Shown: positions 2,915 through 34,194 of the stretch, in pieces
How positions within the stretch are numbered: position 1 is the first letter of the stretch
Layout: the number at the start of each line of letters is the position of its first letter
Source: a virus
IMG/VR virus record: IMGVR_UViG_3300037478_000343
Span: 4,180 to 68,179 of that record
Direction: 5' to 3' (one strand)
DNA length: 64,000 bases
Program-made: the position numbers and the translations under genes
The notes under the pieces: generated by a model
Databases searched by the model: none
What the model was told of the DNA's origin: nothing
The model's input: the letters and a program-made list of their open reading frames with translations, nothing else

Positions 2915-3355
2915 TCAAAACGGAATATCGTCGTCGTCAAAGTCCTTTTTTATGTCTCTGGTTTCCTCAGGCTCCTGATCGGATTCCTGGCTGGCCGAAC
3001 GACCACCCCCGCCCGACTTGCCGCCCAACATGATCAGCCCGCCGAAGTTGTCGAGCAGAATCTCGGTGCTGTAGCGCGTGACGCCTTCTTTGTCGTCCCA
3101 CTTGCGGGTTTGCAGCTTGCCCTCGATGTAGACCTGAGAACCCTTGCGGACGTACTCAGCGATGATCTCGGCGGTCTTGCCGAACGCGACACATTTATGC
3201 CACTCGCATTGCTCCTTCACTTCACCGGTGGATTTGTCGGTCCACTTCTCGCCGGTGGCGACGGAAAAGTTTGCAACCGCCTTGCCGTCAGGAAGGAATC
3301 GCGTCTCCGGGTCTTGGCCTAGTCGGCCGATCAGCATGGCTTTGTTCAGGTCCAT
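2915..3355 (-). CDS. ssb: single-stranded DNA-binding protein
   Basis: OB-fold SSB pattern ([11 protein letters not shown]...[11 protein letters not shown]...[14 protein letters not shown]), Gly-rich linker and the canonical acidic C-terminal tail DDDIPF. AAGGAG RBS. Confidence 0.95.
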
Positions 3356-3383: not shown

Positions 3384-4136
3384 TCAGAAGATACGCAGGC
3401 TCTCTGATTCGATGAATTCGGCCCCGCTAATTTCCTTGACGCCCTTCTTCAGCATCAGTTGGGCGAGGGTGTTCAGGCCGGACCTTTTCAGGTCCACGAC
3501 TTGCTCCAGCACGAGACCGTCCAGGTCGTCCAGCGCAGAGGGTAGGGCCGCCAGGAATTGGCGCAGGTTCTTAACCTCAGTGTTGTACTTCTTCGCACTC
3601 GAGGTGGACGAACCGTAGTTGCCTCTCGTCACGCCTACTCTGGCTTTCTCGATCAGCTTTTCGGTGACCTTCGTCGCCTCCTCAAGAACCTCGTTCTGGT
3701 CCTCCTCAGTGGTTTCTGCCTCGGCTTGCGCTAGAGCTTCCTCCTCAAGGCGTCGTGCTTCCTTGGCGGCCTCCTCGCGTAGGCGGGCATCTTCGGCGCG
3801 TTTCCACGTCACCATCTTCCGCTCGACGATGGTGCGTACCTTGTCGAACTCGCCAGTAACCGGCTTGAACGCCTTGTTGATGAGCGTGTACAGGTTGTAG
3901 AACGGGGAGGTTATTTCCTTGCGCAGGTCCTCCGCTTTGCTCCCTTGCGTGCGCGCGATCTTAATCAAATCGCCGCCCTTGGCGTATGACTCCGAGTCCG
4001 TGACCTCGGCCCTGTCGGCCTGCGCGATCAGGTTGTTCGCGGTCTCCTGAAATTCCGCAAGCGCTACCTGTAGCCGTCCGACTTTCTCGGCGGTCGGAAG
4101 CCCGGTGGTGGAAATTGTTACTGCTTTGCTCGTCAT
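3384..4136 (-). CDS. coiled-coil protein of the recombination module (possibly Gp157-like)
   Basis: ORF track 3384..4202. ATG at 4136 (MTSKAV...) has a GAGAGG RBS and overlaps the stop of the YqaJ-like gene. Long Glu/Ala/Lys/Arg coiled-coil segment. Sits between ssb and the exonuclease/recT pair. Confidence 0.55.
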   Translation of the reverse strand: MTSKAVTISTTGLPTAEKVGRLQVALAEFQETANNLIAQADRAEVTDSESYAKGGDLIKIARTQGSKAEDLRKEITSPFYNLYTLINKAFKPVTGEFDKVRTIVERKMVTWKRAEDARLREEAAKEARRLEEEALAQAEAETTEEDQNEVLEEATKVTEKLIEKARVGVTRGNYGSSTSSAKKYNTEVKNLRQFLAALPSALDDLDGLVLEQVVDLKRSGLNTLAQLMLKKGVKEISGAEFIESESLRIF

Positions 4137-4146
4137 GTCTGGCCTC

Positions 4147-4836
4147 TCAAAACAGGGACGGGATGCCGTCCAGTTCGTTTGCGTACTCTGGTCGTTCATC
4201 ATTGACCAGCATATGATTTATCTGCACCAGTCGTTCGTAGAACCGCGCCTGCATGCCCTCGTCAAGTGGAACGTCCTCCTGGTGTAGCTGCTCCAGCGGC
4301 TTTGCCTCCGGATGGAAGCTGACGAACCTTATCTTTGGCCGGCCAGTGACAAATGCCTCGAACTGAACCTGTACGAAGTACTCCCACATGCACTGCTTCA
4401 CGCCAAATCTAAGCAGGTCTTTGTGCCTATCCAGAATCAGCGGGCACTTCACCTGCCCGGTCGTGTCGTCACCCTCAAAAAAGTCTGGGGTTGCGCTCGC
4501 GATGTCGAATGTGGGGTGAATAAACATGCCGGGGTTGATCTGCACCTTGCCGGTGGTAAACCGCAGCATGTCGTACTCACGGATGGCGCGCTCCTCGTAG
4601 GCGTGGCCATGCTCGAAGGCGGCGCACGTCGCTCCATCGACTGCCGGCTTCGTCAGTTCCTCCGCCATCTCGTCCAACATCCGACCGATCGTGGCGGGGC
4701 GACCGTACATTATCTTGTACGCACGGTCAGAGGCCGTGATGCGACCGCGCCGAGCGTCCATCCAAATCGGCGTGTTCTGCGGAATCCCCTTGGCCGGGTC
4801 CTTCGGCTTGTACAGTAGGCTGAAGTCGTACTTCAT
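4147..4836 (-). CDS. YqaJ-like viral recombinase-type exonuclease
   Basis: PIWMDARRGRITASDRA...AFEHGHAYEERAIREY matches the YqaJ/lambda-exonuclease family signature. Immediately downstream of recT, as in Sak/RecT-YqaJ modules. Start taken at Met-59 of track ORF 4147..5010. Confidence 0.8.
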   Translation of the reverse strand: MKYDFSLLYKPKDPAKGIPQNTPIWMDARRGRITASDRAYKIMYGRPATIGRMLDEMAEELTKPAVDGATCAAFEHGHAYEERAIREYDMLRFTTGKVQINPGMFIHPTFDIASATPDFFEGDDTTGQVKCPLILDRHKDLLRFGVKQCMWEYFVQVQFEAFVTGRPKIRFVSFHPEAKPLEQLHQEDVPLDEGMQARFYERLVQINHMLVNDERPEYANELDGIPSLF

Positions 4837-4867
4837 GACCGGCGCCCAATAAGAACGACCGAAACAA

Positions 4868-5986
4868 TCATCCCTTTTTGCCTTTGCTGGTCGCCTTACC
4901 CCGCGGCTCCTTGGCCGCGGGCTTAGCGCTTTCCTTCGCGCCCTCCGGGGGGTCGCCCCCCTCCTCAGCATTCTGTTTCGCGGCCTCGTTGACCTTTTTT
5001 TGCCGGTCAAGCAGCTTGGCTTCGATTTCTTCGAAGTAGCGAACCGGAATTTTCTTCAGGCTGTTGGTCTTGTACGTCTCGGCTACCTTCGCCGGTGCGA
5101 GCCCCTGCGTATTACACAGGTCACGTATTCTCTTGGCCTGCTCGTCCGATATTTTCTCGCCCATATCGGCACGTAGAGATTCCTCGTCAATCGCCGACGC
5201 CTGCTCGTTGGCCTCGGCCTCGTTGTCGATATGGACTGCCGTCTGCAGACGCTTATAGGCTTCGCCATCCGACACCGGCCACTGTTTGTAGCCGCGCTTG
5301 ATGCCGCTCTTTTTGGACATCTCTCCGGGCCACGTGACCCACGGTCCGCTCGGTTTCCGTTTGGGGTCGCGTGGATTGAATGCGTCACTGGCGCGGGCAA
5401 CAGTCAGTATCTCGCCGATGTCCATCACGGTGATATGCGGGTTCGGTGCGTCCCGTAGCTGCGCGATGCAGTAGACGCCGATCATGCGGTTGCGCTCTCC
5501 GTTTACGAGGTCGATAACGCGCTCCTCACGCGGCGCAAACAGCTTCGGCTTGTGTTTCAGGTACGGAGTGCTACCGAGGTCCACGTCGAACGTGTCCTCC
5601 TCGCAGAGAAACACCACGTCGGCCCTGATGTTCGAAATTACGCCGGTGTCGGTCGCCAGCTTCATCAGTCCTCGGTACTGGGGGGAGGCGGTGCATTCGA
5701 CTCGGTTACGCTTCGAGTTCCACCGCGGCAGAAGCGCCGCCTGCTGGCCGGCCGGATTCAGGCTCAGGCCCATCGCGGCCAGGTTGACGAACGCATCCTT
5801 GATGGTCTCCGGGTCGCACTCCAGTAGCTTCTCGTTGTTCGAGATGGCCTGCAGCGCGAACCGCGCCTCGTTGTTGTAGTCGAGGAGCTTGTGCGTGTTC
5901 TGCGCGTTGAACTTGCGCTTCGCATCCCGGATGGCAAGAGCCGCCTTCTCTCGGGCCTGCGGTTTGGCGACGACCTTGTTTGCCAT
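4868..5986 (-). CDS. recT: RecT-family single-strand annealing recombinase
   Basis: Central RecT core (GLSLNPAGQQAALLPRW...YRGLMKLATDTGVISNIRADVVFLCEEDTFDVD...) with a Lys/Glu-rich C-terminal tail. GGGGAG RBS. Confidence 0.9.
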   Translation of the reverse strand: MANKVVAKPQAREKAALAIRDAKRKFNAQNTHKLLDYNNEARFALQAISNNEKLLECDPETIKDAFVNLAAMGLSLNPAGQQAALLPRWNSKRNRVECTASPQYRGLMKLATDTGVISNIRADVVFLCEEDTFDVDLGSTPYLKHKPKLFAPREERVIDLVNGERNRMIGVYCIAQLRDAPNPHITVMDIGEILTVARASDAFNPRDPKRKPSGPWVTWPGEMSKKSGIKRGYKQWPVSDGEAYKRLQTAVHIDNEAEANEQASAIDEESLRADMGEKISDEQAKRIRDLCNTQGLAPAKVAETYKTNSLKKIPVRYFEEIEAKLLDRQKKVNEAAKQNAEEGGDPPEGAKESAKPAAKEPRGKATSKGKKG

Positions 5987-6624
5987 GTCTCTCCCCTGCG
6001 AAAATTAGAGCGGTTGGCCAAGTTTGATATAAAGGGCGACCGCGACTACCCTTACATGTTTCCCCGGTGACCTCCGGAGCCAGCTGATTCAGTGTCTCTA
6101 CGGTCCCCACCGATCTACTGGTGAGCTTTGTTCCGTCTCGGAGACAAGGCGTCTGAAATGTACGCCCAGCTGGAGCATGGTTTGGACGATACCCGCTAGA
6201 ATCAGGTGCGTCTACAACTTGCCGATTTTATTTTCCGGTCGCGGAGTGTACCAGAGTTTGCCCGGTCAACTTCGTTGCCGAAACGGTGGCGGAGCGGTGG
6301 CCGTATGTTTGGGAAATGTGGTTTCATGCTCGCCGCGAACGAGAGGGCGAACTCGATAAAAAGCGCAGGTAGGGGTCGGGAGCGCCTTAGCTTTCGGTCT
6401 GGGGACGCCGAATAGAACCCCAGAGCCGCCGTGCGGCCAGCTTCCTAGAAACCACTTTAACAAAGTGCGTCTAGGGGGTAAGGGGGCCGCTGTGCCGCCA
6501 GGGAGGCGATAACTACTGAATAGTAAGACAACAGACTCAGGTATTAAGTTAAATTGCGCCCGAGTTTCGCGAGTTCTGTAAGGTCGGGCATTTCAGGCAT
6601 TTCAGAAATCGGAGTAAGATTCTT

Positions 6625-6995: not shown

Positions 6996-9509
6996 ATGCA
7001 ACTGTTCGACTACCAGAGCCGTGTTCTCGACGACGTGCGCTACGCCATCCGCGGAGGCGCACGCTCGATCTTAATGGTGCTCCCGACCGGTTCAGGAAAA
7101 ACGGTCTGCGGTGCCCACATGATTCATTCCGCTGAGTCGAAAGGCAACCCGACGCTATTCACCGCGCATCGGCGCGAGCTGGTGAACCAGACCGTCGACA
7201 AGTTGCAACGTTTCGGCGTACAGCATGGGACGATCATGGCCGGCAAGACGCCGTCCCTTTGGCATGGCGTGCAGGTTGCCAGCGTCGATACTTTGCGGGC
7301 TCGCTGCATGAGCCCACGCAAGAAGATGGAATTGCCACGCGCATCTATCCTGATGGTGGACGAAGCGCACCGGTCCTGCAGCCCGACCTACACGAAGCTG
7401 ATCGACCATTACCGTAAGGACTCGCTGGTGATTGGGCTCACGGCTACGCCGATTCGCGGCGACGGCAAGGGCCTTGGCCGCCACTACGACGAGATGGTTG
7501 TCGGACCCACGGTGCAAGAACTGATCGACATGGGGCGCCTGGTACAGCCCAAGTATTTCGTGCCGAGCATTCAGGACCTGACTGGCGTGCCTATCGCGAA
7601 GGGCGACTACGTCGAGAAGCACCTCGGCAACATCATGGGCACGAAAGAGGTGATCGGCGACGTCGTGGAGCATTACGGCAAGCTTGGCGAGGGCCCGGCC
7701 TTGCTGTTTGCGCCAGATGTGAAGTCGTCCATCGGCTACATGGAAGCATTCAATCGTGCTGGCATTTCTGCGGCTCATATTGATGCGTCCACGCCAGCGG
7801 ACGAGCGCGACCGCATCATCGCAGGACTCCTTGGCGGCCGGTTCGATGTTTGCTGCAACGTAATGGTGCTTTGCCTTGACACCGAAACCGAGATTCTCAC
7901 CGACCGAGGATGGACAAACTACCGGGAAATGACCAAGCAGCACAAGGTGGCTAATTGGGAAGGCGGTCGCGTGTGGTTTGAGGGGCCGCAAGATGTGGTC
8001 GTGAGGGACCGAGATCCAAGTGAGCGCATGTTCTCCATAGAGACGCGCAAGAAAAGCATCCGGGTTACCTCAGGGCATAGGATGCTGTACAGAACGAAGC
8101 ACGGAGGACGGTTCCTCAAATGCCCCGTGGACGAACTTGAAGGACGAAGCGTGCAGCTTCCGATTACCGGTCGCATTGATATAGAGCCCGCTGAAGTCAC
8201 ATTGGACGAATGTATGTTCGCGGGGTTCTTTGTTGGCGATGGCTCAAGGTGCCAACTACAGAGAGGAGGTGTCGAGTACGTTGTTTCTCAGAGCTTCGCT
8301 TATCCGAAGATAATTGCATGGTTCGATGCGCTGATTCTCAGGTGCGGTCTGCATTGCGTGCGAAAGGAGAGGGCATACGCAGTCAAATTCGTGCGCTGGA
8401 GCTTCTGCCGCGGAACCGGCGGAAAATCACAGAAACGCAACGGTGGCGTGGCTCGTCTAGAGTGGCTGCTGGACAAATCTTGCTCCTCCATCAGTAGTTT
8501 GAGCGCCTCTCAGTTCGAGGCGTTTATGCATGGTCTCTGGATGGCCGACGGCAACCACGGAGATGGCGCGACTCCAGTCAAGAACAAATATATAACCTCC
8601 TGCAACAAGTACATGCTAGACAACATTCAGGCCGCAGCCACTGTTCGCGGCATGCGGGTGTCGCTGTCTTCTGAGATTCTTCCACGTAAGGCAAACCACC
8701 GGTCGCAATGGACCCTATCGTTCTGCCATAGAGATTACTGCTCCACGAGCTGCTCTGAGTTTAAGGCAGAGAACATCTGGCGCCCAGAGAAGGTCTGGTG
8801 CGTCAAGACCACGTCAAAAAACATCATCACCAGGCGGCAAGGCAAGGTTGTTGTCATGGGCAACACCGAGGGCTTCGACTGTCCACCAGTGCGCACCATC
8901 ATCATGTGCCGACCAACCCGAAACATCGGTTTGTATTTGCAGATCGGCGGTCGGGGCCTGCGCACGTCGGACGGAAAGGACTCCTGCATAGTCATCGACC
9001 ACTCTGGGAGCGTGTACGAGCACGGCCTGCTGGAATGGGACCACGAGTGGAAACTGACCGATGCCGAGGGCTGCGAGTCTCGCGAGGAGCGCCAGAAAAA
9101 GCTGGACGAGAAGAAGCCTATAACCTGCGTCCAGTGCTCCCATGTGTATACCGGCCAGCTTATCTGTCCCAACTGCGGACACATGCCGAAGAAGCACGGA
9201 AAAATTGTCGAGAGTCGCCAGGCCGATCTGGTTGAGTTACGGACCCTGGCGCGCCAGAAAAAGGAGCGCAAAGACAAGCCCCGAGAGTACACGAAGGAGG
9301 AGAAGCAGCTGTTCTTTTCCATGGCGCTCCAGTACGCCGCTGACAGAGGACACAAAGATGGTTCAGTGGCTTGGAAATTCAAAGACCGCTTTGGCCACTT
9401 CCCTCAAGACATGCAGAGGATACCGACAGAGCCTTCACCGGAATTCATGCGGTTCATCCAGCACCTGAATATTAAAGCCGCCTACCGCCGGAAGAAGGAA
9501 GCGGCATGA
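6996..9509 (+). CDS. SF2 DEAH-box DNA helicase with C-terminal zinc ribbon, interrupted by an intein (extein about 506 aa)
   Basis: Walker A LPTGSGKT, motif II MVDEAH, motif III GLTATP, motif V split as VMVL|...|TEGFDCP, C-terminal CVQCS...CPNCGH zinc ribbon. A 331-aa insertion separates the two halves of motif V. Confidence 0.85.
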   Translation: MQLFDYQSRVLDDVRYAIRGGARSILMVLPTGSGKTVCGAHMIHSAESKGNPTLFTAHRRELVNQTVDKLQRFGVQHGTIMAGKTPSLWHGVQVASVDTLRARCMSPRKKMELPRASILMVDEAHRSCSPTYTKLIDHYRKDSLVIGLTATPIRGDGKGLGRHYDEMVVGPTVQELIDMGRLVQPKYFVPSIQDLTGVPIAKGDYVEKHLGNIMGTKEVIGDVVEHYGKLGEGPALLFAPDVKSSIGYMEAFNRAGISAAHIDASTPADERDRIIAGLLGGRFDVCCNVMVLCLDTETEILTDRGWTNYREMTKQHKVANWEGGRVWFEGPQDVVVRDRDPSERMFSIETRKKSIRVTSGHRMLYRTKHGGRFLKCPVDELEGRSVQLPITGRIDIEPAEVTLDECMFAGFFVGDGSRCQLQRGGVEYVVSQSFAYPKIIAWFDALILRCGLHCVRKERAYAVKFVRWSFCRGTGGKSQKRNGGVARLEWLLDKSCSSISSLSASQFEAFMHGLWMADGNHGDGATPVKNKYITSCNKYMLDNIQAAATVRGMRVSLSSEILPRKANHRSQWTLSFCHRDYCSTSCSEFKAENIWRPEKVWCVKTTSKNIITRRQGKVVVMGNTEGFDCPPVRTIIMCRPTRNIGLYLQIGGRGLRTSDGKDSCIVIDHSGSVYEHGLLEWDHEWKLTDAEGCESREERQKKLDEKKPITCVQCSHVYTGQLICPNCGHMPKKHGKIVESRQADLVELRTLARQKKERKDKPREYTKEEKQLFFSMALQYAADRGHKDGSVAWKFKDRFGHFPQDMQRIPTEPSPEFMRFIQHLNIKAAYRRKKEAA
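7872..8864 (+). mobile_element. intein with LAGLIDADG homing-endonuclease domain, inserted in helicase motif V
   Basis: Starts with Cys (CLDTETEILT, block A), TSGH block B, two LAGLIDADG-type motifs (MFAGFFVGDGS and FMHGLWMADGNHGDG), ends ...KVVVMGN followed by Thr+1 (TEGFDCP). Removing it restores a contiguous helicase motif V. Penultimate residue is Gly rather than His. Confidence 0.75.
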
Positions 9510-9913
9510 AGCGTCGCTATCGCATCTCCATCCGGATCAACGGCAAGCGCGTCTACACGAAGCTGTACCGACGCTGGATGGATATGAAGGGCCGCACGAA
9601 AGGCCACTCGACCCGATCACCGCACTTGTACGACGGCCTTGATCTCCACTGGACATCCTTCGCGGAGTTTCGTTCGTGGGCGCTGGTGAACGGGTTCAGC
9701 AAGGGAACGTCGTCTCCTGATAGAAAAGATGCTGATAAGGGCTACGTGCCGGGCAATGTGAAGTTCGTCCCGTGTGTCGAAAACTACTCATCCCGCCGAA
9801 GCTGGCAGCACATGAGCGACTACGCCGTGCGCGGCGATGAGCCGCCCGAGCCCAAGCACGGACCTCATTGTTCGTGCGAATTTTGCGCGGACTATTGGGC
9901 GGCCACGGCATGA
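9506..9913 (+). CDS. HNH-family endonuclease-like protein (phage homing-endonuclease-type)
   Basis: Pattern KLYRRWMDMKGRTKG...YDGLDLHWTSFAEFRSWALVNGF...DRKDADKGYVPGNVKFVPCVENYSSRR resembles the common phage HNH (HNH_3-like) free-standing endonuclease family. ATGA overlap with the helicase stop. Confidence 0.5.
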   Translation: MKRRYRISIRINGKRVYTKLYRRWMDMKGRTKGHSTRSPHLYDGLDLHWTSFAEFRSWALVNGFSKGTSSPDRKDADKGYVPGNVKFVPCVENYSSRRSWQHMSDYAVRGDEPPEPKHGPHCSCEFCADYWAATA

Positions 9914-10851
9914 GCCGGCCCAGCCTCATTTCCGAAGTGCGAGAGACCGCGCGCGGCCGGTGGCCAAACGTCTTGCGTGCGATCGGTGTAGACCCAGCGG
10001 TGCTGAGCGGAAAGCACCAGCCATGCCCGATGTGTGGCGGCGAGGACCGGTTCAGGTTCACCGACCACCAGTCCGAGGGGCGGTATTTTTGCTCCGGGTG
10101 TGGTCCGGGTGACGGGTTCGATCTGGTTGTAGGGGTGTTGGGTGTGTCGATGCGGGATGCGGCGAAAGAGATCAGGAAAATATGCGGTGGTGTGCCGGAG
10201 GCGGACGAGGTTTTTACAGAGCCAGACGTGGACTCGAGAAAGAACGCGCTCAACAGCATGTGGCAGTCCGCTGGTCTGTGGGTGGCTGCGCGCAGGTATC
10301 TGACTACGCGGGGCTGCTTTCGAATGGACGCGGATTTATACCAGGATCTTCGCGGCGGGAATATCTGGCACAAGGAGAAGGGTAGGAGGATGCGTGCCAT
10401 GCTGGCGCTCGTGCGCGACCCCCATGGCCGGCCAGTATCGATCCATCGCACCTTCCTGGACGAGGATGGCAAGCGGTTCGAGCGGAAGATGATGCCGCCC
10501 GTTGGAGACATATCTGGATCGTCGATCAGGCTTGGCATCATCGCTGACAAGGTAATTATTGGCGAGGGTATCGAGACAGTTCTGTCCGGATGCCTCAAGT
10601 TCGAATGGCCCGGCATGGCCGCGATCAGCGCAAACCTGATGCAGATGGTGAAGTTACCCGCTTCCGTGAAGGACGTCATCATCTTGGCGGACAACGACAA
10701 ATCGTTCACCGGTCAGGCCGCGGCATTCACCTTGGCGCGCCGGCTGGACAACGAGAAGCGGCGCGTGTCGGTGTATCTCACGGAGCGGCGCGGAGACTTT
10801 AACGACGACCAGGATCACTACCAGATTTGGAATAACGAAACAGGGGACTAA
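9910..10851 (+). CDS. DNA primase (P4-type Zn-ribbon plus TOPRIM)
   Basis: CPMCGGEDRFRFTDHQSEGRYFCSGCG zinc-binding motif, then a Toprim-like region (IIGEGIETVLS...ILADNDKSFTGQ). ATG at 9910 overlaps the upstream stop (ATGA). Confidence 0.8.
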   Translation: MSRPSLISEVRETARGRWPNVLRAIGVDPAVLSGKHQPCPMCGGEDRFRFTDHQSEGRYFCSGCGPGDGFDLVVGVLGVSMRDAAKEIRKICGGVPEADEVFTEPDVDSRKNALNSMWQSAGLWVAARRYLTTRGCFRMDADLYQDLRGGNIWHKEKGRRMRAMLALVRDPHGRPVSIHRTFLDEDGKRFERKMMPPVGDISGSSIRLGIIADKVIIGEGIETVLSGCLKFEWPGMAAISANLMQMVKLPASVKDVIILADNDKSFTGQAAAFTLARRLDNEKRRVSVYLTERRGDFNDDQDHYQIWNNETGD

Positions 10852-11941: not shown

Positions 11942-12271
11942 AGGCTCACCACGATCGCGTGCGCGCGTGTAGATGTGTCGTGACCGCATCGCCACAAGTC
12001 ACCATTCACCATTGCCACGGCGGTTCGATGAAAGACGCTGGATTTCACTCTGGCGGTGCTCAGAGGGGAGTGGGGGAGGCGCTGGTGCTGCCTTTGAAAG
12101 CGGGGTTCCATTTCGGGGATAACGGTATCGACAACGGTGTCGGTGTCGAGACGTGGGAAATTTGGTACGGGACTCAGGTAGGGTTTTTGAAAGAGATTTC
12201 TGAGCTACTTGAGTATGATGTCTTCGAACTACACCGCCTTTGGGAAAAGGAGCCGCCGCCACGAGGATGAC

Positions 12272-12769
12272 ATGGAAGTCAAGATACGCCCATTAGTAGC
12301 AGGTCCGCGGCTCGAGATCGACGAGCAGAAGGAAGCGTGGAAGTGGCTGGCCAGCGTTCAGGTTGGTGACAAGTGCCTTCAAGACTACAGCTTTATGTGC
12401 CCTAACGGCACCCAGCTAGCCGGCGGCCGCAACCGCCGTGCGCAATACATGTCGAGCCTGAAGGCGCAGGGATTCAAGACCGGCGTCAGCGACCTTGTGA
12501 TTGCTTATCCGGTCGGAGAGTTCCATAGCGGAGATTACCCCGGTGGCGCGTTCCATGGCGCCTATATTGAGCTGAAGCGTGTGCGGGAGGCATTCAAGGG
12601 ACCCGCGGCCTTGGCGGCCAGCGTCAGTGAGGACCAAAAGGGCTGGCTTCGGCTGATGGCCTCGGTCGGCTACTGGGTGTACGTGGCGTACGGCGCGGAA
12701 GACTTTAAGGTTGCCGTCAGATCGTACCTGCAAAGAAAAAATCAGCCACCCCTTGATTTTTCTCTGTGA
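12272..12769 (+). CDS. VRR-NUC domain nuclease
   Basis: GVSDLVIAYPVGEFHSGDYPGGAFHGAYIELKRV...KGWL fits the VRR-NUC (PD-(D/E)xK) pattern. In-frame ATG at 12272 (MEVKIRPL) within track ORF 12209..12769. Confidence 0.65.
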   Translation: MEVKIRPLVAGPRLEIDEQKEAWKWLASVQVGDKCLQDYSFMCPNGTQLAGGRNRRAQYMSSLKAQGFKTGVSDLVIAYPVGEFHSGDYPGGAFHGAYIELKRVREAFKGPAALAASVSEDQKGWLRLMASVGYWVYVAYGAEDFKVAVRSYLQRKNQPPLDFSL

Positions 12770-13647: not shown

Positions 13648-14066
13648 GGTCTTCTCCTCGTGAAAATTTTTCGGCCTACTCATAGATTGCTACTTTGGTT
13701 CCGTGCTAATGTCCTGCCACTACAAGGATAAACGTCGCAACCATCTGATAGACTTGTATTTTACAGGACGCCGAGCAAACTGTCAACGGGTAGGTTTTTC
13801 AGGGACTTACGGATGTGATTACGGACCAGGAAGGAAGAATATGCGCCTCGGAACTCATAATTTCGCTGGATGACATGGATGCAATGCAGCGCGCTATCAG
13901 GGTTGGTCCATATTTGTACGCGGGGATCTTGCACGCGGTACGCGACCTGGCCGGCCTTGGGATCGAATTGGAAAAAGGATCGGTGTCTTTCGCAAGAGAT
14001 ATTGAACTGAACATTACAACGGTGACGGTCCGGTCTGATTGGCGACCGCCGTCGAGGAGGTAAGTG

Positions 14067-14315
14067 ATGCTCGCACCACACAGCGTCTATGGCTACGTGT
14101 CCGAGAAAGACATCGAGGAGGCCATCGAAAAGAGGCTGAGGACCACCGGCGCCGACAAGAAGGACGTTCTGGCGTCGCTGCTTGGGGAGGCCATCAACAC
14201 TCTCTTGAAGATTAACTCAGCGATACCCATCAGCTCACGACACCGGCACCTGATCTCGGGTCCGATGGAAGAATTTGCGAATGGCAGCGGCAAAGAAACA
14301 TATCCGACATCCTAG
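14067..14315 (+). CDS. hypothetical protein (82 aa)
   Basis: ATG at 14067 with a GAGGAGG RBS. Track ORF 14064..14315. Confidence 0.45.
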   Translation: MLAPHSVYGYVSEKDIEEAIEKRLRTTGADKKDVLASLLGEAINTLLKINSAIPISSRHRHLISGPMEEFANGSGKETYPTS

Positions 14316-15135
14316 TAGGGGTCGCGAAACGATCTGCGGACGGATGTCGGTAACGTTCGCCGCGAAGGACGGTGATGCGACTTGCGGTGTGTGCCGGTCG
14401 ATGGCGACGAACGGAAACCTTGAGAAGCTACGGCTGAACGACTCCAAGGAGAAGTTTCCCGGCGCCAACCAGAGCGGCAATCCCCGCATGACGGACCTGC
14501 AGAAGGCATTTGCAGCTCATCCTCTGGTGACGACCAACCCACGTCGCGCGGCGATTGAGGTTGGTTACAGCGAGTCCTACGCAGAGGATCACGCGCACGC
14601 GCTCAGGAAGCAGTTGTCGTTCGCCATTATCGCGAACCAGGAGGAGGCCAGGAAGCTATCTGCAATTTCGGCTGCTCGAGTGCAGCAGGAGCTTGCATCG
14701 ATGGGATTTGCAAATATTTTGGATTACTACGATGTTTGCGCTGAGACCGGGGAAGCCACCCCGAAGCAACTGAACGAACTGACGCGCGAGCAAGCGGCGG
14801 CCGTTCAGGAGGTAGAGATGTTGGAAATCGAGGATGCTGATGGCACTAAGAGAAAGGTGCTGGGGCGCATCAAGCTCACGGACAAGCGTGCGGCATTGGT
14901 TGAACTGGGAAAAACCATTGGACTTTTCAACAAATTTACCATTGAGGACCGCCGGCAGAACACGCTAGACCTTGAGCAGGTACCTACCGAGGACCTTGAG
15001 AAGGTCGAACGGTACCTGTTGAACGCCGCCCGCAAGACGCGGGACAAGATCGACAATCATGAGGCCATACCTGGCGAATACGCCGAGGCCGGGACATTAC
15101 TAGAGGGGCCACAGGATGGCGGTCAAGAAAACTGA
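14281..15135 (+). CDS. terS: terminase small subunit (Terminase_2 / P27-like); start uncertain (14281-14488)
   Basis: MTDLQKAFAAHPLVTTNPRRAAIEVGYSESYA...KLTDKRAALVELGKTIGLF matches the Terminase_2 small-subunit pattern, including the conserved C-terminal KLxDKxxALELLGKxLGxF-like segment. Confidence 0.75.
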   Translation: MAAAKKHIRHPSRGRETICGRMSVTFAAKDGDATCGVCRSMATNGNLEKLRLNDSKEKFPGANQSGNPRMTDLQKAFAAHPLVTTNPRRAAIEVGYSESYAEDHAHALRKQLSFAIIANQEEARKLSAISAARVQQELASMGFANILDYYDVCAETGEATPKQLNELTREQAAAVQEVEMLEIEDADGTKRKVLGRIKLTDKRAALVELGKTIGLFNKFTIEDRRQNTLDLEQVPTEDLEKVERYLLNAARKTRDKIDNHEAIPGEYAEAGTLLEGPQDGGQEN

Positions 15136-16300
15136 TTTAGATGGACTGGATCAATTCTGTACAAACGACGGGCAGAAGGCACTGCTTGCTGCAATTCGAG
15201 AATCCCGAACGCACAGGGAGGCCGCCAACAAGCTCGGGACTACCGAGAGAAACGTAGCCTACAAGCTCCAGAGACTGCGAGAGAAGGCTGCAAAGGCCGG
15301 ATACTCCCCGCAGCACGACATGACCAAGACGACTCCCGAGGGATTTAGCGTCAAGGGCACATCGACGCTCTACGATCCAGGCGGCGTGGTCAAGCTGCAG
15401 TGGGTCAAGACGCAGCGCGATCAGGAACTGCGGCAAGAGATCATGCGGCAGTTCGTGGAGGAACTGAGCGACACCGTGACACCCCGTAAACGCATCGCGC
15501 TCGGCAAGAAATCTACGGCCAAGGATCTGATGGTTGGCTACCCCATAGGCGATCATCACTGGGGCATGTACGCATACGCCGCGGAGACCGGCGGCGACTA
15601 CGATTGCAAGATCGCGAAGAAGGTCCTTGCAGACGCGGTAGACAATCTCGTGGACGCGGCCCCTGCGGCCGAGACAGCCCTTCTCGCGAACTTGGGCGAT
15701 TACCTGCACATGGATAACCGATCGAACGTAACTCCGGCCAGCGGGCACATGCTGGACGTTGACACGCGATACAGCCGCGTCATTCGCTTGGCGGCCTTCG
15801 GGTTGGCCCATTCCATAGAGAGGCTTTTGGAGAAGCACAAGCGTGTTCGAATGGTCAATGTTCCCGGTAATCACGATCAAGACTCCGCTTCGTGGCTGTC
15901 TCTTGTGATGCAGGCGTATTTTCGCAACGAGCCACGCGTCGAGATAGATATGTCTCCGGCTGTGTTCCTGTTTTACCGCTTCGGCGCCAACATGATATGC
16001 ATGACGCACGGTCATACCGTGAAGCTGGAAAACCTACCCAGCATCATGGCGAGCCTGCAACCCCAAATGTGGGGAGAGACCACATACCGCGTTGGATGGA
16101 CCGGCCACGTCCATCACAGCCAGACGGTCATTGGCAAGGAGAATCATGGTGCTGTCGCCGAGTCTTTTGGTGTTCTCGGGCCGTGCGACGCCTACAGCGC
16201 ATCCAGGGGCCACGGTGCCCGGCGGGAGATGAATGCGATTACCTTCAAAAGAGACGGCGGCATCAAGTGTCGCGCCACATACAACGCCGACTTGCCATGA
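15116..16300 (+). CDS. HTH domain fused to a calcineurin-like metallophosphoesterase
   Basis: N-terminal sigma70-r4/LuxR-like HTH (THREAANKLGTTERNVAYKLQRLR), then metallophosphoesterase motifs GDHHWG, GDYLHMDN, GNHD, MTHGH, GHVHH in the canonical order. GAGGGG RBS. Overlaps the terS end. Confidence 0.7.
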   Translation: MAVKKTDLDGLDQFCTNDGQKALLAAIRESRTHREAANKLGTTERNVAYKLQRLREKAAKAGYSPQHDMTKTTPEGFSVKGTSTLYDPGGVVKLQWVKTQRDQELRQEIMRQFVEELSDTVTPRKRIALGKKSTAKDLMVGYPIGDHHWGMYAYAAETGGDYDCKIAKKVLADAVDNLVDAAPAAETALLANLGDYLHMDNRSNVTPASGHMLDVDTRYSRVIRLAAFGLAHSIERLLEKHKRVRMVNVPGNHDQDSASWLSLVMQAYFRNEPRVEIDMSPAVFLFYRFGANMICMTHGHTVKLENLPSIMASLQPQMWGETTYRVGWTGHVHHSQTVIGKENHGAVAESFGVLGPCDAYSASRGHGARREMNAITFKRDGGIKCRATYNADLP

Positions 16301-16644
16301 GCGCGCCTTTGGATGCAAAGGTTCGCAAGAACCTGCCATTGTGGCGAGGCTTTCTGCGCTACTTCCCGGATGCGTCGCTCGCGGTGGCGAAGCTGTCCTT
16401 GATCGGGAACGAGCAACACAATCCTGGGGAGGAACTGCACTGGGCGCGTGGCAAGTCCATGGACCAATACGACTGCCTCGCTCGCCATCTGCTGGACGCC
16501 GACCTACTCGACTCCGATCTTGTGCCGCACGCAGTCAAGGTCGCATGGCGCGCCATGGCCGGCCTACAGACTTACCTTGAGCAGAATCCGTGGGACACGT
16601 CCGTTGAGGAGTGCCTTGCGGCAGCGAAGAAGGGGAATGACTGA
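16297..16644 (+). CDS. DUF5664-like protein (resembles the N-terminal domain of phage dATP/dGTP diphosphohydrolases)
   Basis: PLWRGFLRYFPDASLAVAKLSLIGNEQHNPGEELHWARGKSMDQYDCLARHLLDADL... pattern recalled from that family. ATGA overlap with the upstream stop. Assignment by memory of the motif only. Confidence 0.45.
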   Translation: MSAPLDAKVRKNLPLWRGFLRYFPDASLAVAKLSLIGNEQHNPGEELHWARGKSMDQYDCLARHLLDADLLDSDLVPHAVKVAWRAMAGLQTYLEQNPWDTSVEECLAAAKKGND

Positions 16645-16853
16645 TGCCGCCCATCTACGAATATGTGTGCGAAGACTGCGATTCGGTGTTCTCTATCCTG
16701 ACGACCTTCGATCATCGCAGGGACGCACAGATATGTCCGAATTGCGAATCGCGGGACAACCATCCGATCTTGTCTCCGACCAGAACCACCTTCAAATTCG
16801 CTGACAGATGTGCAGAGAAGCGCATACGGGCCCCCAAGGAGAAACGGCGATGA
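16644..16853 (+). CDS. FmdB-family zinc-ribbon protein
   Basis: MPPIYEYVCEDCDSVF...ICPNCES: classic FmdB CxxC...CxxC ribbon. ATGA overlap with the upstream stop. Confidence 0.55.
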   Translation: MPPIYEYVCEDCDSVFSILTTFDHRRDAQICPNCESRDNHPILSPTRTTFKFADRCAEKRIRAPKEKRR

Positions 16854-17500
16854 AAGAACTGGATCGCATAGGCGTCGAGGATGACGCTTGGATGATGACC
16901 GCTCTTGGCGGCGCGGTTTACTTTCTGAGGCCGGCCGACTCCGACATAAACATTGAGGCAGTAGCCCTGCACGCGGGCAAGCTGTGTCGGTGGGGCGGTG
17001 CTGTATCGAGATTCTACTCTGTTGGGCAGCACCAATGCATGGTTGGGACATTGATCCAGCGCCAGCTTGATGCCGATGGCATTTCGGATGCCACAGAGGA
17101 GTACTGGGACCAGATACTGGCCGGCCTTTTGCACGATGGCGGCGAGTCATTCACAAATGACGTCGTCAGCCCGCTCAAGCACATCATGGGGGGCAAGTAC
17201 GATTGGATCGAGACCGGACTGGTTCGTGAGCTATTCCACCGCTACGGGGTGGACTGGGCCTACTACAACCAGACCGTGAACGACGCCGACAGGCTTGCAT
17301 CCGAGATCGAGCGCACGTTTCTTCTGCCCGATCATCCGCGGTTCCCAAAGAAGGACCCGGCAACACTGCCGTACCGGATTGAAAAAGAAGATTGCTGGGG
17401 TCCGGACGTTGCCGGCGACAAGTACCTTCAGGCCGTCAGGTACGTTATGGAAAGGCGCAAGCAGACCAGAATTGAGGGTCGAAATGCAACGTCTGGTTGA
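16850..17500 (+). CDS. HD-domain phosphohydrolase
   Basis: H...(ALHAGK)...QH...LLHDGGESF...D arrangement typical of HD-superfamily hydrolases (YfbR/5'-deoxynucleotidase-like). AAGGAG RBS. ATG overlaps the upstream stop. Confidence 0.6.
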   Translation: MKELDRIGVEDDAWMMTALGGAVYFLRPADSDINIEAVALHAGKLCRWGGAVSRFYSVGQHQCMVGTLIQRQLDADGISDATEEYWDQILAGLLHDGGESFTNDVVSPLKHIMGGKYDWIETGLVRELFHRYGVDWAYYNQTVNDADRLASEIERTFLLPDHPRFPKKDPATLPYRIEKEDCWGPDVAGDKYLQAVRYVMERRKQTRIEGRNATSG

Positions 17501-17678
17501 CTGGAGCACTGCATACGTCACAAGGGCGCGCATGTGGATATTCAGCGGCCACTGGCGCGCTGTGTCACGGTACGCGATTAACGTACGGTTCCTGGAATGC
17601 GTGCGATGCAGGGATGAGGAGAACGCGCGGGCCGTAGCTGAGATTCACAACAGCTCGCGCGGTTTGTGGAGTTTCTAG
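17484..17678 (+). CDS. hypothetical small protein (64 aa)
   Basis: In-frame ATG with GAGGGT RBS. Overlaps the 3' end of the HD gene. Confidence 0.3.
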   Translation: MQRLVDWSTAYVTRARMWIFSGHWRAVSRYAINVRFLECVRCRDEENARAVAEIHNSSRGLWSF

Positions 17679-17938
17679 GCGGCTATGTCGCCCGTGCGCG
17701 GGTCTTTTGCCCACTCGAATTCCTGGCCCTCGTCTTCGTGGTGCGGGACAAATCCCGGGTCGTCGAGGAATTTCTTCAGGTGTGCGTTATTGAGCGCGAG
17801 CCTGTGCAGGCGCTCGTAGAGGCATGGCAGCACTGCATCGTGCGGTATGAAGCCACCTTTCGCCCTTTGGATCTGTAGTTCGTTCTCTGCGGTGATGATG
17901 TGGATCAGTTGCTTGGCGTTGTCCGTGAGTACGGTCAT
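17675..17938 (-). CDS. hypothetical protein (87 aa)
   Basis: ORF track. GGGGA RBS 7 nt upstream of the ATG. Convergent with the plus-strand cassette. Confidence 0.45.
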   Translation of the reverse strand: MTVLTDNAKQLIHIITAENELQIQRAKGGFIPHDAVLPCLYERLHRLALNNAHLKKFLDDPGFVPHHEDEGQEFEWAKDPRTGDIAA

Positions 17939-17975
17939 CGTTTGTCCCCATGCGAAGTTTAATAACTACGGCTCC

Positions 17976-18004
17976 AACGTAGCAAATCGCCGACAGGAGA
18001 TCAA
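17976..18004 (-). promoter_or_regulatory. candidate sigma70-type promoter for the 17938..17675 gene
   Basis: On the minus strand: TTGATC (-35), 17-nt spacer, TACGTT (-10), about 30 nt upstream of the start codon. Confidence 0.25.
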
Positions 18005-23076: not shown

Positions 23077-23604
23077 TTACGCAAGGTCAATATAGGCTAG
23101 TGCGCGCTCCAAGCCCTCTCTAGAGTCTCCTAGGGCGGCGATGCCCAAGTTACACTTGTGGCAAAGCCACCCTCGGAATTGACCCGTTTCGTGACAGTGG
23201 TCTAGGCAAAGGTTTCTTTTTTTCGGTGGTCGGCCGCAGAGTTCGCAAAACCCAGGGTCCGCCCTTGTAGGCTTTGGAAGTCCCTGCCAACGTCGTGCCT
23301 GCTCTAACAGCGTTGTTCTGTTCTCGGTGGCGTACTTTCTCTTATGCGCTTTGTTAATTTTGTTCCAGCCGCGCCTTCTTGAAAGGATTCTTTCGTGGTT
23401 CGCATAGTAGTACACCTTTTCGCAGGCTCTGCACTTCGCTTGCAGGCCATCTTGCTTGGCGTTGTTCTTATTGAACTCTGACAGCGGCTTATCGCGCCTG
23501 CATGTCCGGCATTTCTTAGATTGATCGTTCACTAAAGTCCTTTTTGGTGAGGTGAAGCCACTCCTCTGAAGTTCACTGCCGATTATACCGAAAACCAGAT
23601 GCAT
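23077..23604 (-). CDS. endonuclease VII (T4 gp49-like) family nuclease
   Basis: CRTCRRDK...CRACEK...FCELCGRPPKKRNLCLDHCHETGQFRGWLCHKCNLGIAAL matches the Endo VII zinc-binding/HNH-like core. Visibly lower GC than its surroundings. Confidence 0.8.
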   Translation of the reverse strand: MHLVFGIIGSELQRSGFTSPKRTLVNDQSKKCRTCRRDKPLSEFNKNNAKQDGLQAKCRACEKVYYYANHERILSRRRGWNKINKAHKRKYATENRTTLLEQARRWQGLPKPTRADPGFCELCGRPPKKRNLCLDHCHETGQFRGWLCHKCNLGIAALGDSREGLERALAYIDLA

Positions 23605-32547: not shown

Positions 32548-34194
32548 TTGAGTGCCGCTGCCCCCGTCCAAAACCTAACCCAGATTCAGGCCGAGCTTGC
32601 ACGGCGTGATCAGTATCGTTTTTTCAAGGACGCGTGGACAATCATGGACCCCGCGCCGTTCCACGATACGTGGCATCTTGAGGTTATCTCCGAGTTCCTG
32701 ACCTACGTGACGCTGGGAGACATCACTCGCCTAGTCGTCAGCATGCCGCCTCGCATGACAAAAAGTTTAATGTGTTCAGTCAGTTGGTGCGTATGGTCCT
32801 GGGTGCAGAACCCCAAACTGCAGTTCCTCACCGCCTCCTACGACCTCGATCTGTCCAAGCGAGATACCCTGAAGTCTCGCCGCCTTATTGAATCTGCATG
32901 GTTCCAAGAGCGATGGGGTAGAGAATTCAAGCTATCCGCCGACGAGAACATGAAGGGCCGCTACTCGAACACCAAGGGTGGTCACCGGATCGCCATCACG
33001 TCTGGCGGTAAGACTACCGGGGAGGGGGGCGATGTCATCCTGATCGACGACGCGCACAACGCGAGAGAAGTTTACTCCGATGTAAAGCGTGAGGGCGTGC
33101 TGGAGTGGTACGACAACGCTATGCGATCCCGCCTGAACAACCAGAATACCGGCGCCATCGTGCATGTCGGCCAGAGAACACACGAGGGCGACGTGATCGG
33201 GCATGTGCTCAGGAAGGAGGGCAAGGTCCAGCTCAACGACGACGGTAAGTGGGTGCATCTGGTTCTGCCGAACGAGTACCGCCCGAGTAAGCGCTGCGTG
33301 GTGTACCTACCGAAGGATGTGAAGCGCTCCAAAGAGGACCCTGACTTTGAGCCAGTTCCGATCTTCGAAGATCCGCGCCAAAAAGAGGGCGAGCTTCTGT
33401 GCCCAGGCAGGCTGGGTAAGGAGGCGACAAACGCGCTGAAGCCGCCTCACGGCATGAGTGAGCGAGACTACAACTCTCAGTACCAGCAGGACCCCGCGGC
33501 CGACCAGGGTCTCATCCTCAAAAAGCACTGGTGGCAGCCGTGGGTATATCCGGAATGGCATCCGCACCACCACCGGCGACGAGAGATGCCGAAGTGCGAG
33601 ATGTTGATCCAGATTTACGACACCGCGTTCGAGACCGAGGAGGAGAACGACTACTCGGCTCGGACCACATGGGGCGTGTTCACGTATTCGCCGGAGTCCA
33701 TGCATCACCAGACTCGCGCCATACTCAAGGGAAAGCCAAAGAGATGCGCCATTCTGGTCGAGGCATGGCGGGACAAGATCGCGTTTCCGCAGCTCAGGCG
33801 GGAGGCGATCCGCGCCTACAACAAGATGGACCCAGATATGGTTCTGATCGAGAAGAAGGCGTCGGGGCACTCCCTGATTCAAGAATTGAGGCAGTCCGGG
33901 GTGAGGGTCAAGGCCGTCGACCCCAAGGGCAAGGACAAGGTGCTGCGCGCCCACGTGAGTTCGGCGCCACTGGAACAGGGATGCATATTCTACGTGCCCG
34001 GCCACAACGAGGCGAACGACGTAATTGAGGAAGCGTCGAAATTTCCGATGGGCATCAACGACGACTATGTCGACACCGTGGTCATGATGCTGGCGTACCT
34101 GAGGCGGATGGGCTCGATTGAGTACTTCGACGAGGAGGACGACAACGAGCTTAATTTGTTCAAGCCCCGCAGGGAAAGGGGCATCTATGGCTAG
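32548..34194 (+). CDS. terL: terminase large subunit (start uncertain)
   Basis: N-terminal ATPase region (FKDAWTIMDPAPFHDTWHLEVISEFL...LVVSMPPRMTKS Walker-A-like ...VILIDDAHN Walker B) and a C-terminal RNaseH-like nuclease region, typical of Terminase_6-type TerL. 548 aa. Confidence 0.85.
   Translation: MSAAAPVQNLTQIQAELARRDQYRFFKDAWTIMDPAPFHDTWHLEVISEFLTYVTLGDITRLVVSMPPRMTKSLMCSVSWCVWSWVQNPKLQFLTASYDLDLSKRDTLKSRRLIESAWFQERWGREFKLSADENMKGRYSNTKGGHRIAITSGGKTTGEGGDVILIDDAHNAREVYSDVKREGVLEWYDNAMRSRLNNQNTGAIVHVGQRTHEGDVIGHVLRKEGKVQLNDDGKWVHLVLPNEYRPSKRCVVYLPKDVKRSKEDPDFEPVPIFEDPRQKEGELLCPGRLGKEATNALKPPHGMSERDYNSQYQQDPAADQGLILKKHWWQPWVYPEWHPHHHRRREMPKCEMLIQIYDTAFETEEENDYSARTTWGVFTYSPESMHHQTRAILKGKPKRCAILVEAWRDKIAFPQLRREAIRAYNKMDPDMVLIEKKASGHSLIQELRQSGVRVKAVDPKGKDKVLRAHVSSAPLEQGCIFYVPGHNEANDVIEEASKFPMGINDDYVDTVVMMLAYLRRMGSIEYFDEEDDNELNLFKPRRERGIYG

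Follow-up and report, generated by a model that had tools for sequence, protein, structure and literature searches.

The window, the 64,000-nucleotide stretch of viral DNA that was analysed (IMG/VR record IMGVR_UViG_3300037478_000343, positions 4,180 to 68,179), carries on its + strand, at 15116–16300, a gene that joins an N-terminal helix-turn-helix (HTH) to a C-terminal metallophosphoesterase (MPE) domain. Its reading frame runs from an ATG at 15116 to a TGA at 16298–16300, encodes 394 residues plus the stop and contains no internal stop codon, as the initial annotation had reported. The start lies 20 nt within the 3′ end of a TerS-like ORF (stop at 15133–15135), an overlap that had also been claimed and is seen directly in the sequence. 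A Shine–Dalgarno-like AGAGGGG (15102–15108, + strand) is found 7 nt 5′ of the ATG and, since the gene begins inside the upstream ORF, no separate promoter region precedes it. An identical protein (P0001) is present on a 74.7-kb JGI/Logan contig, and public data hold 477 homologs at E ≤ 1e-3; these observations rule out a chance ORF and show that the gene is real.

The TerS-like upstream gene (14488–15135, + strand) matches Pfam Terminase_2 (E 2.4e-16) and phrog_51 (E 8e-16). The ORF as listed begins at a TTG at 14275, and the Terminase_2 match starts from its residue 72 (Met72, codon 14488–14490). A second terS beside terL was undetectable, including by comparison with the TerS of Roseobacter phage CRP-902. 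On the 3′ side, the MPE stop and the start of the next gene overlap as ATGA. This neighbour (16297–16644, + strand, 115 aa) contains a dATP/dGTP diphosphohydrolase N-terminal (MazZ-type) domain (PF18909, E 1.9e-7; phrog_27780, E 1.3e-27) and is followed by an HD-type phosphohydrolase (16808–17500, + strand; phrog_318, E 6e-31; PDB 2gz4, E 5e-9), for which the PHROG name is ‘deoxyribonucleoside 5′ monophosphate phosphatase’. A Z-genome (PurZ/DatZ/MazZ) reading of these genes was considered and rejected: the PurA/PurZ P-loop motif is absent from all frames of the window, about 10 kb of the contig lying outside it, and both downstream genes are dissimilar to the solved DatZ and MazZ structures. 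Helicase, primase and VRR-NUC genes lie 5′ of the MPE gene on the same strand. A scan of 37 window ORFs (among them all non-overlapping ORFs of at least 300 aa and both neighbours) gave no PHROG or Pfam match to SbcC/Rad50, and no DNA polymerase gene was present among the scanned ORFs.

The AlphaFold model of the protein (pLDDT 89.1, pTM 0.73) places three helices, one hairpin and one further helix ahead of an MPE β-sandwich fold. The N-terminal helical domain (15146–15295, + strand; residues ∼11–60, pLDDT 91–96) consists of helices 18–29, 33–40 and 44–60, and most homologs match Pfam HTH families in this region. Helix 44–60, the presumed recognition helix in the model, is where conservation is lowest in an 81-sequence alignment (mean column entropy 2.43). 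It is followed by a family-specific conserved element (15296–15418, + strand; residues 61–101), modelled as a β-hairpin with strands 77–86 and 92–101 and described by the pattern G-x-SP-x-HDMT..P-x-GF-x-VKGTSTLYD..G....QWVK. Its entropy (1.55–1.63, compared with 1.62 for the catalytic core) makes it as conserved as the core itself; W96 is invariant, and G81, S83, T84 and Q95 are kept in at least 90% of homologs. A poorly conserved segment (15419–15517, + strand; residues 102–134) comprising helix 103–120 and a lower-confidence linker (pLDDT 60–75 for the block of residues 101–130) then leads into the MPE catalytic core (15518–16297, + strand; residues 135–394), which carries neither a capping domain nor any further C-terminal domain.

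All five motifs expected of an MPE are present, and they are conserved in an alignment of the window ORF with 80 homologs of 375–401 aa that span 93–100% of it. All lie on the + strand. Motif I (DxH) is D146-H147-H148 at 15551–15559, with D146 and H148 in 81/81 sequences; motif III (GNHD) is G251-N252-H253-D254 at 15866–15877, its codons verified, with G, N and H in every sequence and D in 75; motif IV is H298-G299 at 16007–16012 (81/81); and motif V (GHxH) is G330-H331-V-H333 at 16103–16114, with G330 and H333 in all 81 and H331 in 80. The initial annotation had listed all five but read motif II as GDxxD; it is instead G194-D195-Y-L-H198 at 15695–15709, the GDxxH form of Mre11 type, in which G194 and D195 are retained in all 81 sequences and H198 in 80. 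The metal-ligand motifs are kept across the alignment, and this family-wide retention of catalytic residues argues for an active enzyme.

The window protein scores 16.1 bits (E 0.016) with PF00149, the Pfam model of calcineurin-like metallophosphoesterases, whose gathering threshold is 21.5 bits, and 36 of the 81 aligned proteins match it at E ≤ 0.01. NCBIfam returned nothing beyond a sub-threshold PdeM match of 31 residues, and PADLOC no meaningful or anti-defence-type match. No match better than E 0.096 came from searching PDB sequences, whether the query was the protein alone or the profile of 81 sequences. Foldseek against the PDB returned generic MPE structures, at poor TM-scores and without indicating a subfamily. 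DNA nucleases, namely DP1, Mre11 and SbcD, rank highest among the structural neighbours, and relatives in BFVD include phage proteins auto-named ‘DNA polymerase II small subunit’ (DP1-like). The N-terminal HTH proposed in the initial annotation is borne out by the modelled helices and by the Pfam matches of homologs, but its assignment to a sigma70-r4/LuxR subtype is not: Sigma70_r4_2 matches residues 21–57 with 18.1 bits (E 2e-3), short of its 25.7-bit cut-off, GerE matches only 2 of the 81 sequences, and HTH_1, HTH_50 and HTH_8 match 43, 23 and 13, respectively. In the majority of relatives the top-scoring HTH models are LysR-type or Fis-type. These matches support a generic three-helix HTH.

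By its sequence, the gene belongs, as a divergent member, to the large catalogued phage family PHROG 704, ‘DNA repair exonuclease’ (E 6e-111, 372 bits; residues 16–391 against profile positions 5–386 of 390). With tblastn, 2,055 of 50,697 phage records match (∼4%), and in 1,865 the match extends over 80% or more of the query. Gp16 of coliphage T1 (ST16, YP_003929), sequenced in 2004, is 35% identical over residues 32–382 (E 3e-68); proteins of isolated phages reach 43–44% identity at best, and the nearest metagenomic protein is 78% identical. This distribution gives no support to the initial impression of an HTH–MPE architecture not yet described. Relatives occur in Drexlerviridae, Jersey-like and K1G-like phages, and include gp104 of Vibrio phage VAP7 and gp66 of phage TLS, and the carriers include many Klebsiella, E. 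coli and Salmonella phages that are therapeutic candidates. Record names range over ‘DNA repair exonuclease’, ‘metallophosphoesterase’, ‘winged helix-turn-helix domain-containing protein’ and ‘putative nuclease’, and TLS gp66 is annotated as a ‘proof-reading exonuclease’ (PMC11447400). A literature search located no biochemical or genetic work on any PHROG 704 member, and the family name is a prediction.

The HTH and the MPE domain with its intact motifs belong to one polypeptide, both here and across the family. The order HTH, hairpin, MPE core is common to PHROG 704 members of isolated phages; T1, VAP7, PAE2, PBR31, Bas74 and tonn each encode the fusion as a single CDS, and the proteins of VAP7, PBR31, Bas74 and T1 each show weak Pfam matches to both an HTH and Metallophos. 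A split gene in Pseudomonas phage PAE2, recorded as two hypothetical proteins, proved to be one 377-aa CDS. All occurrences of the N-terminal module were at the start of family proteins of ∼350–417 aa; it was seen neither as a complete stand-alone protein nor fused to another domain. Some database relatives are fragmentary. That an adjacent HTH gene and MPE gene were fused through an error of sequencing or assembly, an explanation for which no supporting point was found, is effectively refuted: the 80 aligned homologs come from independent assemblies and none consists of two separate genes, and the fragmentary relatives are interrupted within the MPE domain or by a contig end, not at the HTH/MPE junction.

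The genomic setting differs between relatives, and in VAP7, T1, tonn and PAE2 it is one of DNA metabolism, which, like the helicase, primase and VRR-NUC genes 5′ of it in the window, favours a DNA nuclease. In VAP7 the MPE homolog adjoins the primase gene, and in T1 and tonn it lies within a block of helicase, VRR-NUC and Dam genes. In the lambdoid phages PBR31, PAE2 and Avpx2 it is found in the nin region or after Q, in PAE2 together with NinB, and in Bas74 it sits in a moron-like islet of the tail module, adjoining a superinfection-immunity gene. A TerS-like gene adjoins the MPE gene in none of eight relatives inspected, and we regard the TerS-like neighbour as context only. No conserved small partner gene was found beside the MPE gene across seven relatives. 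When the helicase, primase, VRR-NUC, terS, MazZ-like and HD genes of the window were compared with the relatives, a weak primase match, in phage tonn, was all that appeared, and megablast of window positions 14000–18000 against phages returned zero matches. Since these neighbourhoods are not conserved, the functional information that can be drawn from context is weak.

Mre11-type nucleases are normally held on DNA by a capping domain and a Rad50/SbcC partner. We infer, with a probability of roughly 0.6, that the protein is a stand-alone Mn2+-dependent DNA exo/endonuclease of PHROG 704, tethered by its HTH and serving replication/recombination or host-DNA breakdown. The C-terminal 260 residues form a binuclear (Mn2+/Fe-type) metallophosphoesterase within the DNA-nuclease branch of the superfamily, together with Mre11/SbcD and the PolD proofreading exonuclease DP1, and the N-terminal ∼100 residues, HTH and hairpin, may stand in for both means of attachment. 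The fusion, the fold, the intact active site, the family membership and the wide distribution among phages are established by the analysis; a DNA substrate, tethering by the HTH and the biological role belong to the interpretation. Acting alone or as a homo-oligomer, the enzyme would trim DNA ends, flaps or hairpins; its role would most likely be the processing of phage replication/recombination intermediates, or a breakdown of host DNA that feeds and protects phage replication. The initial annotation had suggested a DNA-targeted nuclease resembling Mre11/SbcD and working in the absence of SbcC, which fits the structural neighbours, the GDxxH motif and the lack of an SbcC/Rad50-like ORF among those scanned.

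Several considerations run counter to a nuclease reading. Sequence similarity is not significant for Mre11/SbcD (E ∼0.1), weak for Bxb1 gp47 and absent for T5 A1, an HTH can also serve protein contacts or regulation, and the two nucleotide hydrolases downstream could point to a nucleotide substrate. In one alternative the protein would be a nucleotide or oligonucleotide phosphodiesterase and not a DNase, either destroying cyclic-nucleotide immune signals as a counter-defence or acting on nucleotide pools with the MazZ-like and HD enzymes. For calcineurin-like enzymes of phages, a function as counter-nucleotide phosphodiesterases has been predicted (PMC7824862), the PF18909 and HD genes follow on the same strand, overlapping or close, and in the metagenomic relative L005 a PF18909 gene is again found two genes 3′ of the MPE homolog; the islet position in Bas74, beside superinfection immunity, also fits this reading. 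Of the eight other loci examined, however, seven lack the nucleotide-hydrolase neighbours, no PADLOC or anti-defence-type match was obtained, a small-molecule enzyme would hardly be expected to keep an N-terminal HTH, and both the closest structural neighbours and the GDxxH motif point to DNA nucleases, so that we consider this explanation unlikely. More unlikely still is a DP1-like 3′–5′ exonuclease that proofreads or trims primers with a host or phage polymerase at the fork, docked there by the N-terminal module; this would be one form of the nuclease explanation, not a true alternative to it. It would agree with the names given to TLS gp66 and to the DP1-like phage relatives, with the primase or helicase genes adjoining in several phages, and with the replication requirement for the mycobacteriophage MPE Bxb1 gp47 (PMC11795197). 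Against it, the OB fold and DP2-binding region are absent from the AlphaFold model, where HTH and hairpin take the N-terminus, the scanned window ORFs include no DNA polymerase, and some copies of the gene lie remote from replication genes, in the nin regions of temperate lambdoid phages and in a tail-module islet.

Two further explanations have a very small probability, of about equal size. One is a protein Ser/Thr/Tyr phosphatase. Lambda carries NinI (lambda phosphatase) in its nin region, and the similar position of the homologs in the lambdoid relatives and the annotation of the Xanthomonas phage PBR31 protein as ‘protein phosphatase (phage lambda like)’ would suit such an enzyme, but the PPP signature (GDxHG, GDxVDRG, GNHE) is absent, the motifs here being GDHHWG, GDYLH and GNHD, and the protein is ∼170 residues longer than the PPP core and has an HTH in addition. 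The other is a protein that is primarily a transcription factor, its HTH binding operators and its MPE domain serving as a sensor or accessory, as in the autoregulating enzyme envisaged by the initial annotation. A genuine HTH with a variable recognition helix, as found in sequence-specific regulators, and the Q-antiterminator or regulatory genes that adjoin it in some temperate phages are compatible with this. The family-wide retention of the catalytic residues and the overlap of the gene start with the upstream ORF speak against it, as does the lack of a + strand sigma-70-type promoter and of operator-like direct or inverted repeats near the gene; counts of operators, promoters and terminators around it were at or below shuffled expectation, and autoregulation thus found no support.

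A broader proposal can be put forward tentatively, although we regard it as doubtful. PHROG 704 as a whole may comprise self-sufficient, Rad50-independent Mre11/DP1-like nucleases, targeted by a variable HTH and a conserved hairpin, that lie behind host-chromosome breakdown or the processing of replication ends in many phages, T1-like ones among them; in this phage, the gene and the two that follow might then form a T5-like takeover cassette of a DNase followed by dNTP/dNMP hydrolases. For the window itself the finding carries low weight, since the family to which this divergent gene belongs is already catalogued. That family, found in ∼4% of sequenced phage records including the classical T1, carries a predicted name only. 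Were it an HTH-guided, Rad50-independent nuclease of Mre11/DP1 type, it would offer a compact model for the DNA targeting of MPE nucleases and might account for host-DNA degradation or replication requirements of T1-like phages.

The likeness to T5 is a functional analogy only. The T5 pre-early trio comprises A1, a calcineurin-like protein needed for host-DNA degradation, its DNA-binding partner A2, and the 5′-dNMP phosphatase Dmp (PMC13250531, PMC7824862), and so combines an MPE-type enzyme, a DNA-binding function and a deoxynucleotide phosphatase. Here the HTH is fused to the MPE, and an HD gene of the PHROG-318 ‘dNMP phosphatase’ type lies two genes 3′. Homology to A1, A2 and Dmp, tested on the strength of the analogy, was undetectable, and the HD-type phosphohydrolase has no similarity to Dmp. 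The MPEs of cluster A mycobacteriophages (Bxb1 gp47, a recombination directionality factor, and A10ZJ24 gp48, which acts in host-DNA degradation and counter-defence) are of ∼255 aa and without the HTH module, and belong to another family of the same superfamily; profile similarity to Bxb1 gp47 is weak and covers motifs III–V (hhalign E 2e-3, probability 14%). Lambda NinI shares with it the superfamily and, in lambdoid relatives, a similar nin-region position.

Among cellular enzymes, the GDxxH motif II is shared with Mre11/SbcD (T. maritima Mre11, 3qg5; S. aureus SbcD, 7dog; E. coli SbcD, 6s6v), and the alignment with T. maritima Mre11 shows GDLLH at this position, although overall sequence similarity to that protein is not significant (E 0.096–0.17, profile against PDB). 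The window protein differs from these enzymes in lacking the C-terminal capping domain and the Rad50/SbcC-binding helices, and has an N-terminal HTH instead. The archaeal PolD small subunit DP1 (5ihe), a 3′–5′ proofreading exonuclease, is 14% identical to it; DP1 has an OB fold and functions bound to DP2 (PMC11795197), whereas the window protein has HTH and hairpin at its N-terminus and no evident polymerase partner. The closest parallel is PHROG 704 itself, whose members, T1 gp16 included, share the full-length architecture of HTH, conserved hairpin and MPE core. From members of this family the window protein differs only by sequence divergence (at most 44% identity to isolated phages) and by its genomic setting, 3′ of a TerS-like gene and 5′ of two nucleotide hydrolases.

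The 394-aa ORF at window positions 15116–16300 (plus strand) is a real gene and not a chance reading frame. It runs without a break from ATG 15116 to TGA 16298–16300, as initially described, with AGAGGGG 7 nt upstream of the start codon. The preceding TerS-like ORF (stop 15133–15135) overlaps the beginning of the gene by 20 nt, and the gene's own stop overlaps the start of the next gene (ATGA at 16297–16300). Public metagenome and genome data hold one identical protein and 477 homologs at E ≤ 1e-3. The initial annotation regarded the fusion of a helix-turn-helix (HTH) to a metallophosphoesterase (MPE) as undescribed; it is in fact the architecture of PHROG 704, a phage family with the predicted name 'DNA repair exonuclease', which is matched nearly end to end with the N-terminal module included (residues 16–391 against positions 5–386 of the 390-position profile, E 6e-111). 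Matches were found by tblastn in 2,055 of 50,697 phage records, 1,865 of them with at least 80% query coverage, including Drexlerviridae (T1-like), Jersey-like and K1G-like siphoviruses and phages of Vibrio, Aeromonas, Pseudomonas, Xanthomonas, Rhodobacter and Campylobacter. Coliphage T1 gp16 (ST16) is a member (377 aa, 35% identity over residues 32–382, E 3e-68). The window gene is thus a new, divergent member of a phage family that is large and already catalogued but whose function is only predicted, and the literature searched yielded no experimental study of any PHROG 704 member.

For the window protein alone, the Pfam matches to Sigma70_r4_2 (residues 21–57, E 2e-3) and Metallophos (residues 144–324, E 0.016) are both sub-threshold, so the domain assignment leans on the family. 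In an alignment with 80 homologs (39–78% identity; 81 sequences), D146 and H148 of motif I, G194-D195 of motif II, G251-N252-H253 of motif III, H298-G299 of motif IV and G330 and H333 of motif V are invariant, while H198 and H331 are each retained in 80 of 81 sequences and D254 in 75. The five motifs initially listed therefore hold except for motif II, which is GDxxH (GDYLH) rather than GDxxD. Scanned singly, 36 of the 81 members match Metallophos, 43 HTH_1, 23 HTH_50 and 13 HTH_8, which gives no specific support to the sigma-70 region 4/LuxR subtype first assigned to the HTH.

The AlphaFold2 model built on this alignment is a confident prediction (mean pLDDT 89.1, pTM 0.73). It places the HTH helices at residues 18–29, 33–40 and 44–60, followed by a β-hairpin (77–101), a further helix (103–120), a weaker linker and the MPE core (residues ∼135 to 390), with nothing C-terminal to the core. 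Conservation along the protein is informatively uneven: the presumed recognition helix (residues 44–60) is the most variable segment in the family, and residues 61–101 (G-x-SP-x-HDMT...GF-x-VKGTSTLYD...QWVK) match the catalytic core in conservation.

One rival explanation is that the fusion is an artefact, and in some phages the gene is annotated in pieces. In PHROGs 20703, 20762 and 21891 and in BFVD fragments the break falls within the MPE domain rather than where the two domains meet, and PAE2, which looks split in the hit table, is a single CDS. Sequencing frameshifts, or mobile endonuclease genes that inserted into the gene, are possible causes of such pieces. The BFVD fragments are F4YXL3/F4YXL6 from Roseobacter phage RDJL Phi 1, whose gene is annotated as pieces of 309 aa and 117 aa, A0A0N7CGC6 (Salmonella phage 36) and Q45PV2 (phage Jk06); in T1, an HNH gene directly follows gp16. 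Residues 1–135, searched against 1.84 billion cluster representatives, gave 662 matches. The module is N-terminal in every one, complete matches are 350–417 aa, and the many short ones stop within the linker, the MPE domain or adapter/frameshift sequence, which marks them as contig-end fragments; accordingly, these 662 matches include no stand-alone module and no other fusion partner. The fusion thus stands, the two domains not being found as separate genes in relatives.

Upstream of the gene, on the same strand, lie a helicase (6996–9509; phrog_16 matched in two stretches), an HNH endonuclease gene (9506–9913) wedged between helicase and primase and overlapping both, the primase (9868–10851) and a VRR-NUC gene (12209–12769). 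The TerS-like gene (14275–15135 as listed, plus strand; Terminase_2, E 2.4e-16) directly precedes it; the TTG start at 14275 probably adds 71 spurious codons, the Pfam match beginning at Met72 (14488). This gene sits inside the replication/nucleotide-metabolism block, 17 kb upstream of terL (32548–34194, plus strand; likewise 17 kb from the MPE gene), and is the only TerS-like gene detected in the window, with no second terS detectable near terL. Immediately downstream are a PF18909 gene with a MazZ-type dATP/dGTP diphosphohydrolase-N domain (16297–16644) and an HD phosphohydrolase (16808–17500; phrog_318), both on the plus strand. The pair recalls the genes by which base-modified (Z-genome) phages exclude nucleotides. 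However, the whole window lacks a PurZ/PurA P-loop motif, and comparison with solved DatZ/MazZ structures gave no similarity for either gene.

Among the relatives compared, neither a conserved partner gene nor conserved synteny was found, and the PF18909 linkage recurs only in one metagenomic locus, where that gene follows the MPE homolog. Lambdoid homologs occupy the nin or post-Q region, that of Vibrio phage VAP7 adjoins primase, and those of phages tonn and T1 close a helicase/VRR-NUC/Dam block. In Escherichia phage Bas74 (K1G-like), the homolog and a superinfection-immunity gene interrupt the tail-gene operon midway, as a small islet (4689–6292) on the opposite strand. This moron-like position differs markedly from that in T1-like phages, where the gene belongs to the replication module. 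Overall, the gene behaves like a cassette complete in itself that lies mostly among genes of DNA metabolism.

The cassette is carried by a novel environmental phage (57% G+C). No isolated phage has a TerL more than 41.5% identical to its own (top matches, Roseobacter phages CRP-901 and CRP-902), and no part of window 14000–18000 was matched by megablast in the phage collection. A giant 2,327-aa ORF (54624–61607, plus strand), whose only matches are to PHROGs without an assigned function (phrog_18222, E 7e-63), is preceded by a 'DNA ejection protein'-like gene (52494–53414) and a 395-aa ORF lacking a PHROG match (53415–54602); it probably encodes an internal virion or ejection protein of a podovirus-like phage. 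Across the window, some 6-bp palindromes are strongly avoided (GGATCC, 0 observed, 19 expected; CCCGGG, 1 and 34), CTAG is also scarce (52, 240), and GATC (333, 240) and TCGA (386, 240) are over-represented, a pattern that suggests selection against particular restriction systems.

The analysis establishes the fusion, its fold, an intact active site, membership of PHROG 704 and the spread of the family among phages. The best-supported reading is that the protein would act as a stand-alone DNA exo- or endonuclease with a binuclear metal site, the HTH and hairpin module supplying the DNA tethering for which Mre11 uses its capping domain and Rad50; its targets may be phage replication or recombination intermediates, or host DNA. 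A RecT (4868–5986), phrog_10477 exonuclease (3384–4202) and SSB (2915–3355) module lies on the minus strand, which gives RecT a possible exonuclease partner other than the MPE; together with a separate endonuclease VII gene (23077–23604, minus strand), this module gives the phage other nucleases for recombination. A Foldseek search of the PDB returned nothing informative on the kind of MPE. Among the rival readings, a DP1-like proofreading subunit would fit the automatic name 'DNA polymerase II small subunit' of several phage relatives in BFVD and the 'proof-reading exonuclease' annotation in TLS (PMC11447400), and a lambda-type protein phosphatase would fit one of the depositors' names, which range over DNA repair exonuclease, metallophosphoesterase, winged helix-turn-helix domain-containing protein, putative nuclease, oxidoreductase and protein phosphatase. 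A regulator and a nucleotide or cyclic-oligonucleotide phosphodiesterase are further rivals.

The DNA-targeted nuclease proposed initially is reasonable on this reading, with DNA the presumed substrate. Motif II is GDxxH, as in aligned Mre11, and the protein plausibly works like Mre11/SbcD; it is not a member of that family, since sequence similarity is not significant, the model lacks Mre11's capping domain and Rad50-binding helices, and none of the 37 window ORFs scanned is SbcC/Rad50-like. The order of HTH-MPE followed by nucleotide hydrolases invites analogy with the T5 host-takeover trio A1/A2/Dmp (PMC13250531), to which the window genes show no homology. Phage precedents with the same structural neighbours, distant relatives only (gp47 hhalign E 2e-3), are Bxb1 gp47, a weak Mn/Mg exonuclease required for replication of the phage DNA (PMC11795197), and A10ZJ24 gp48, which breaks down host DNA and silences defences (PMC12287305).
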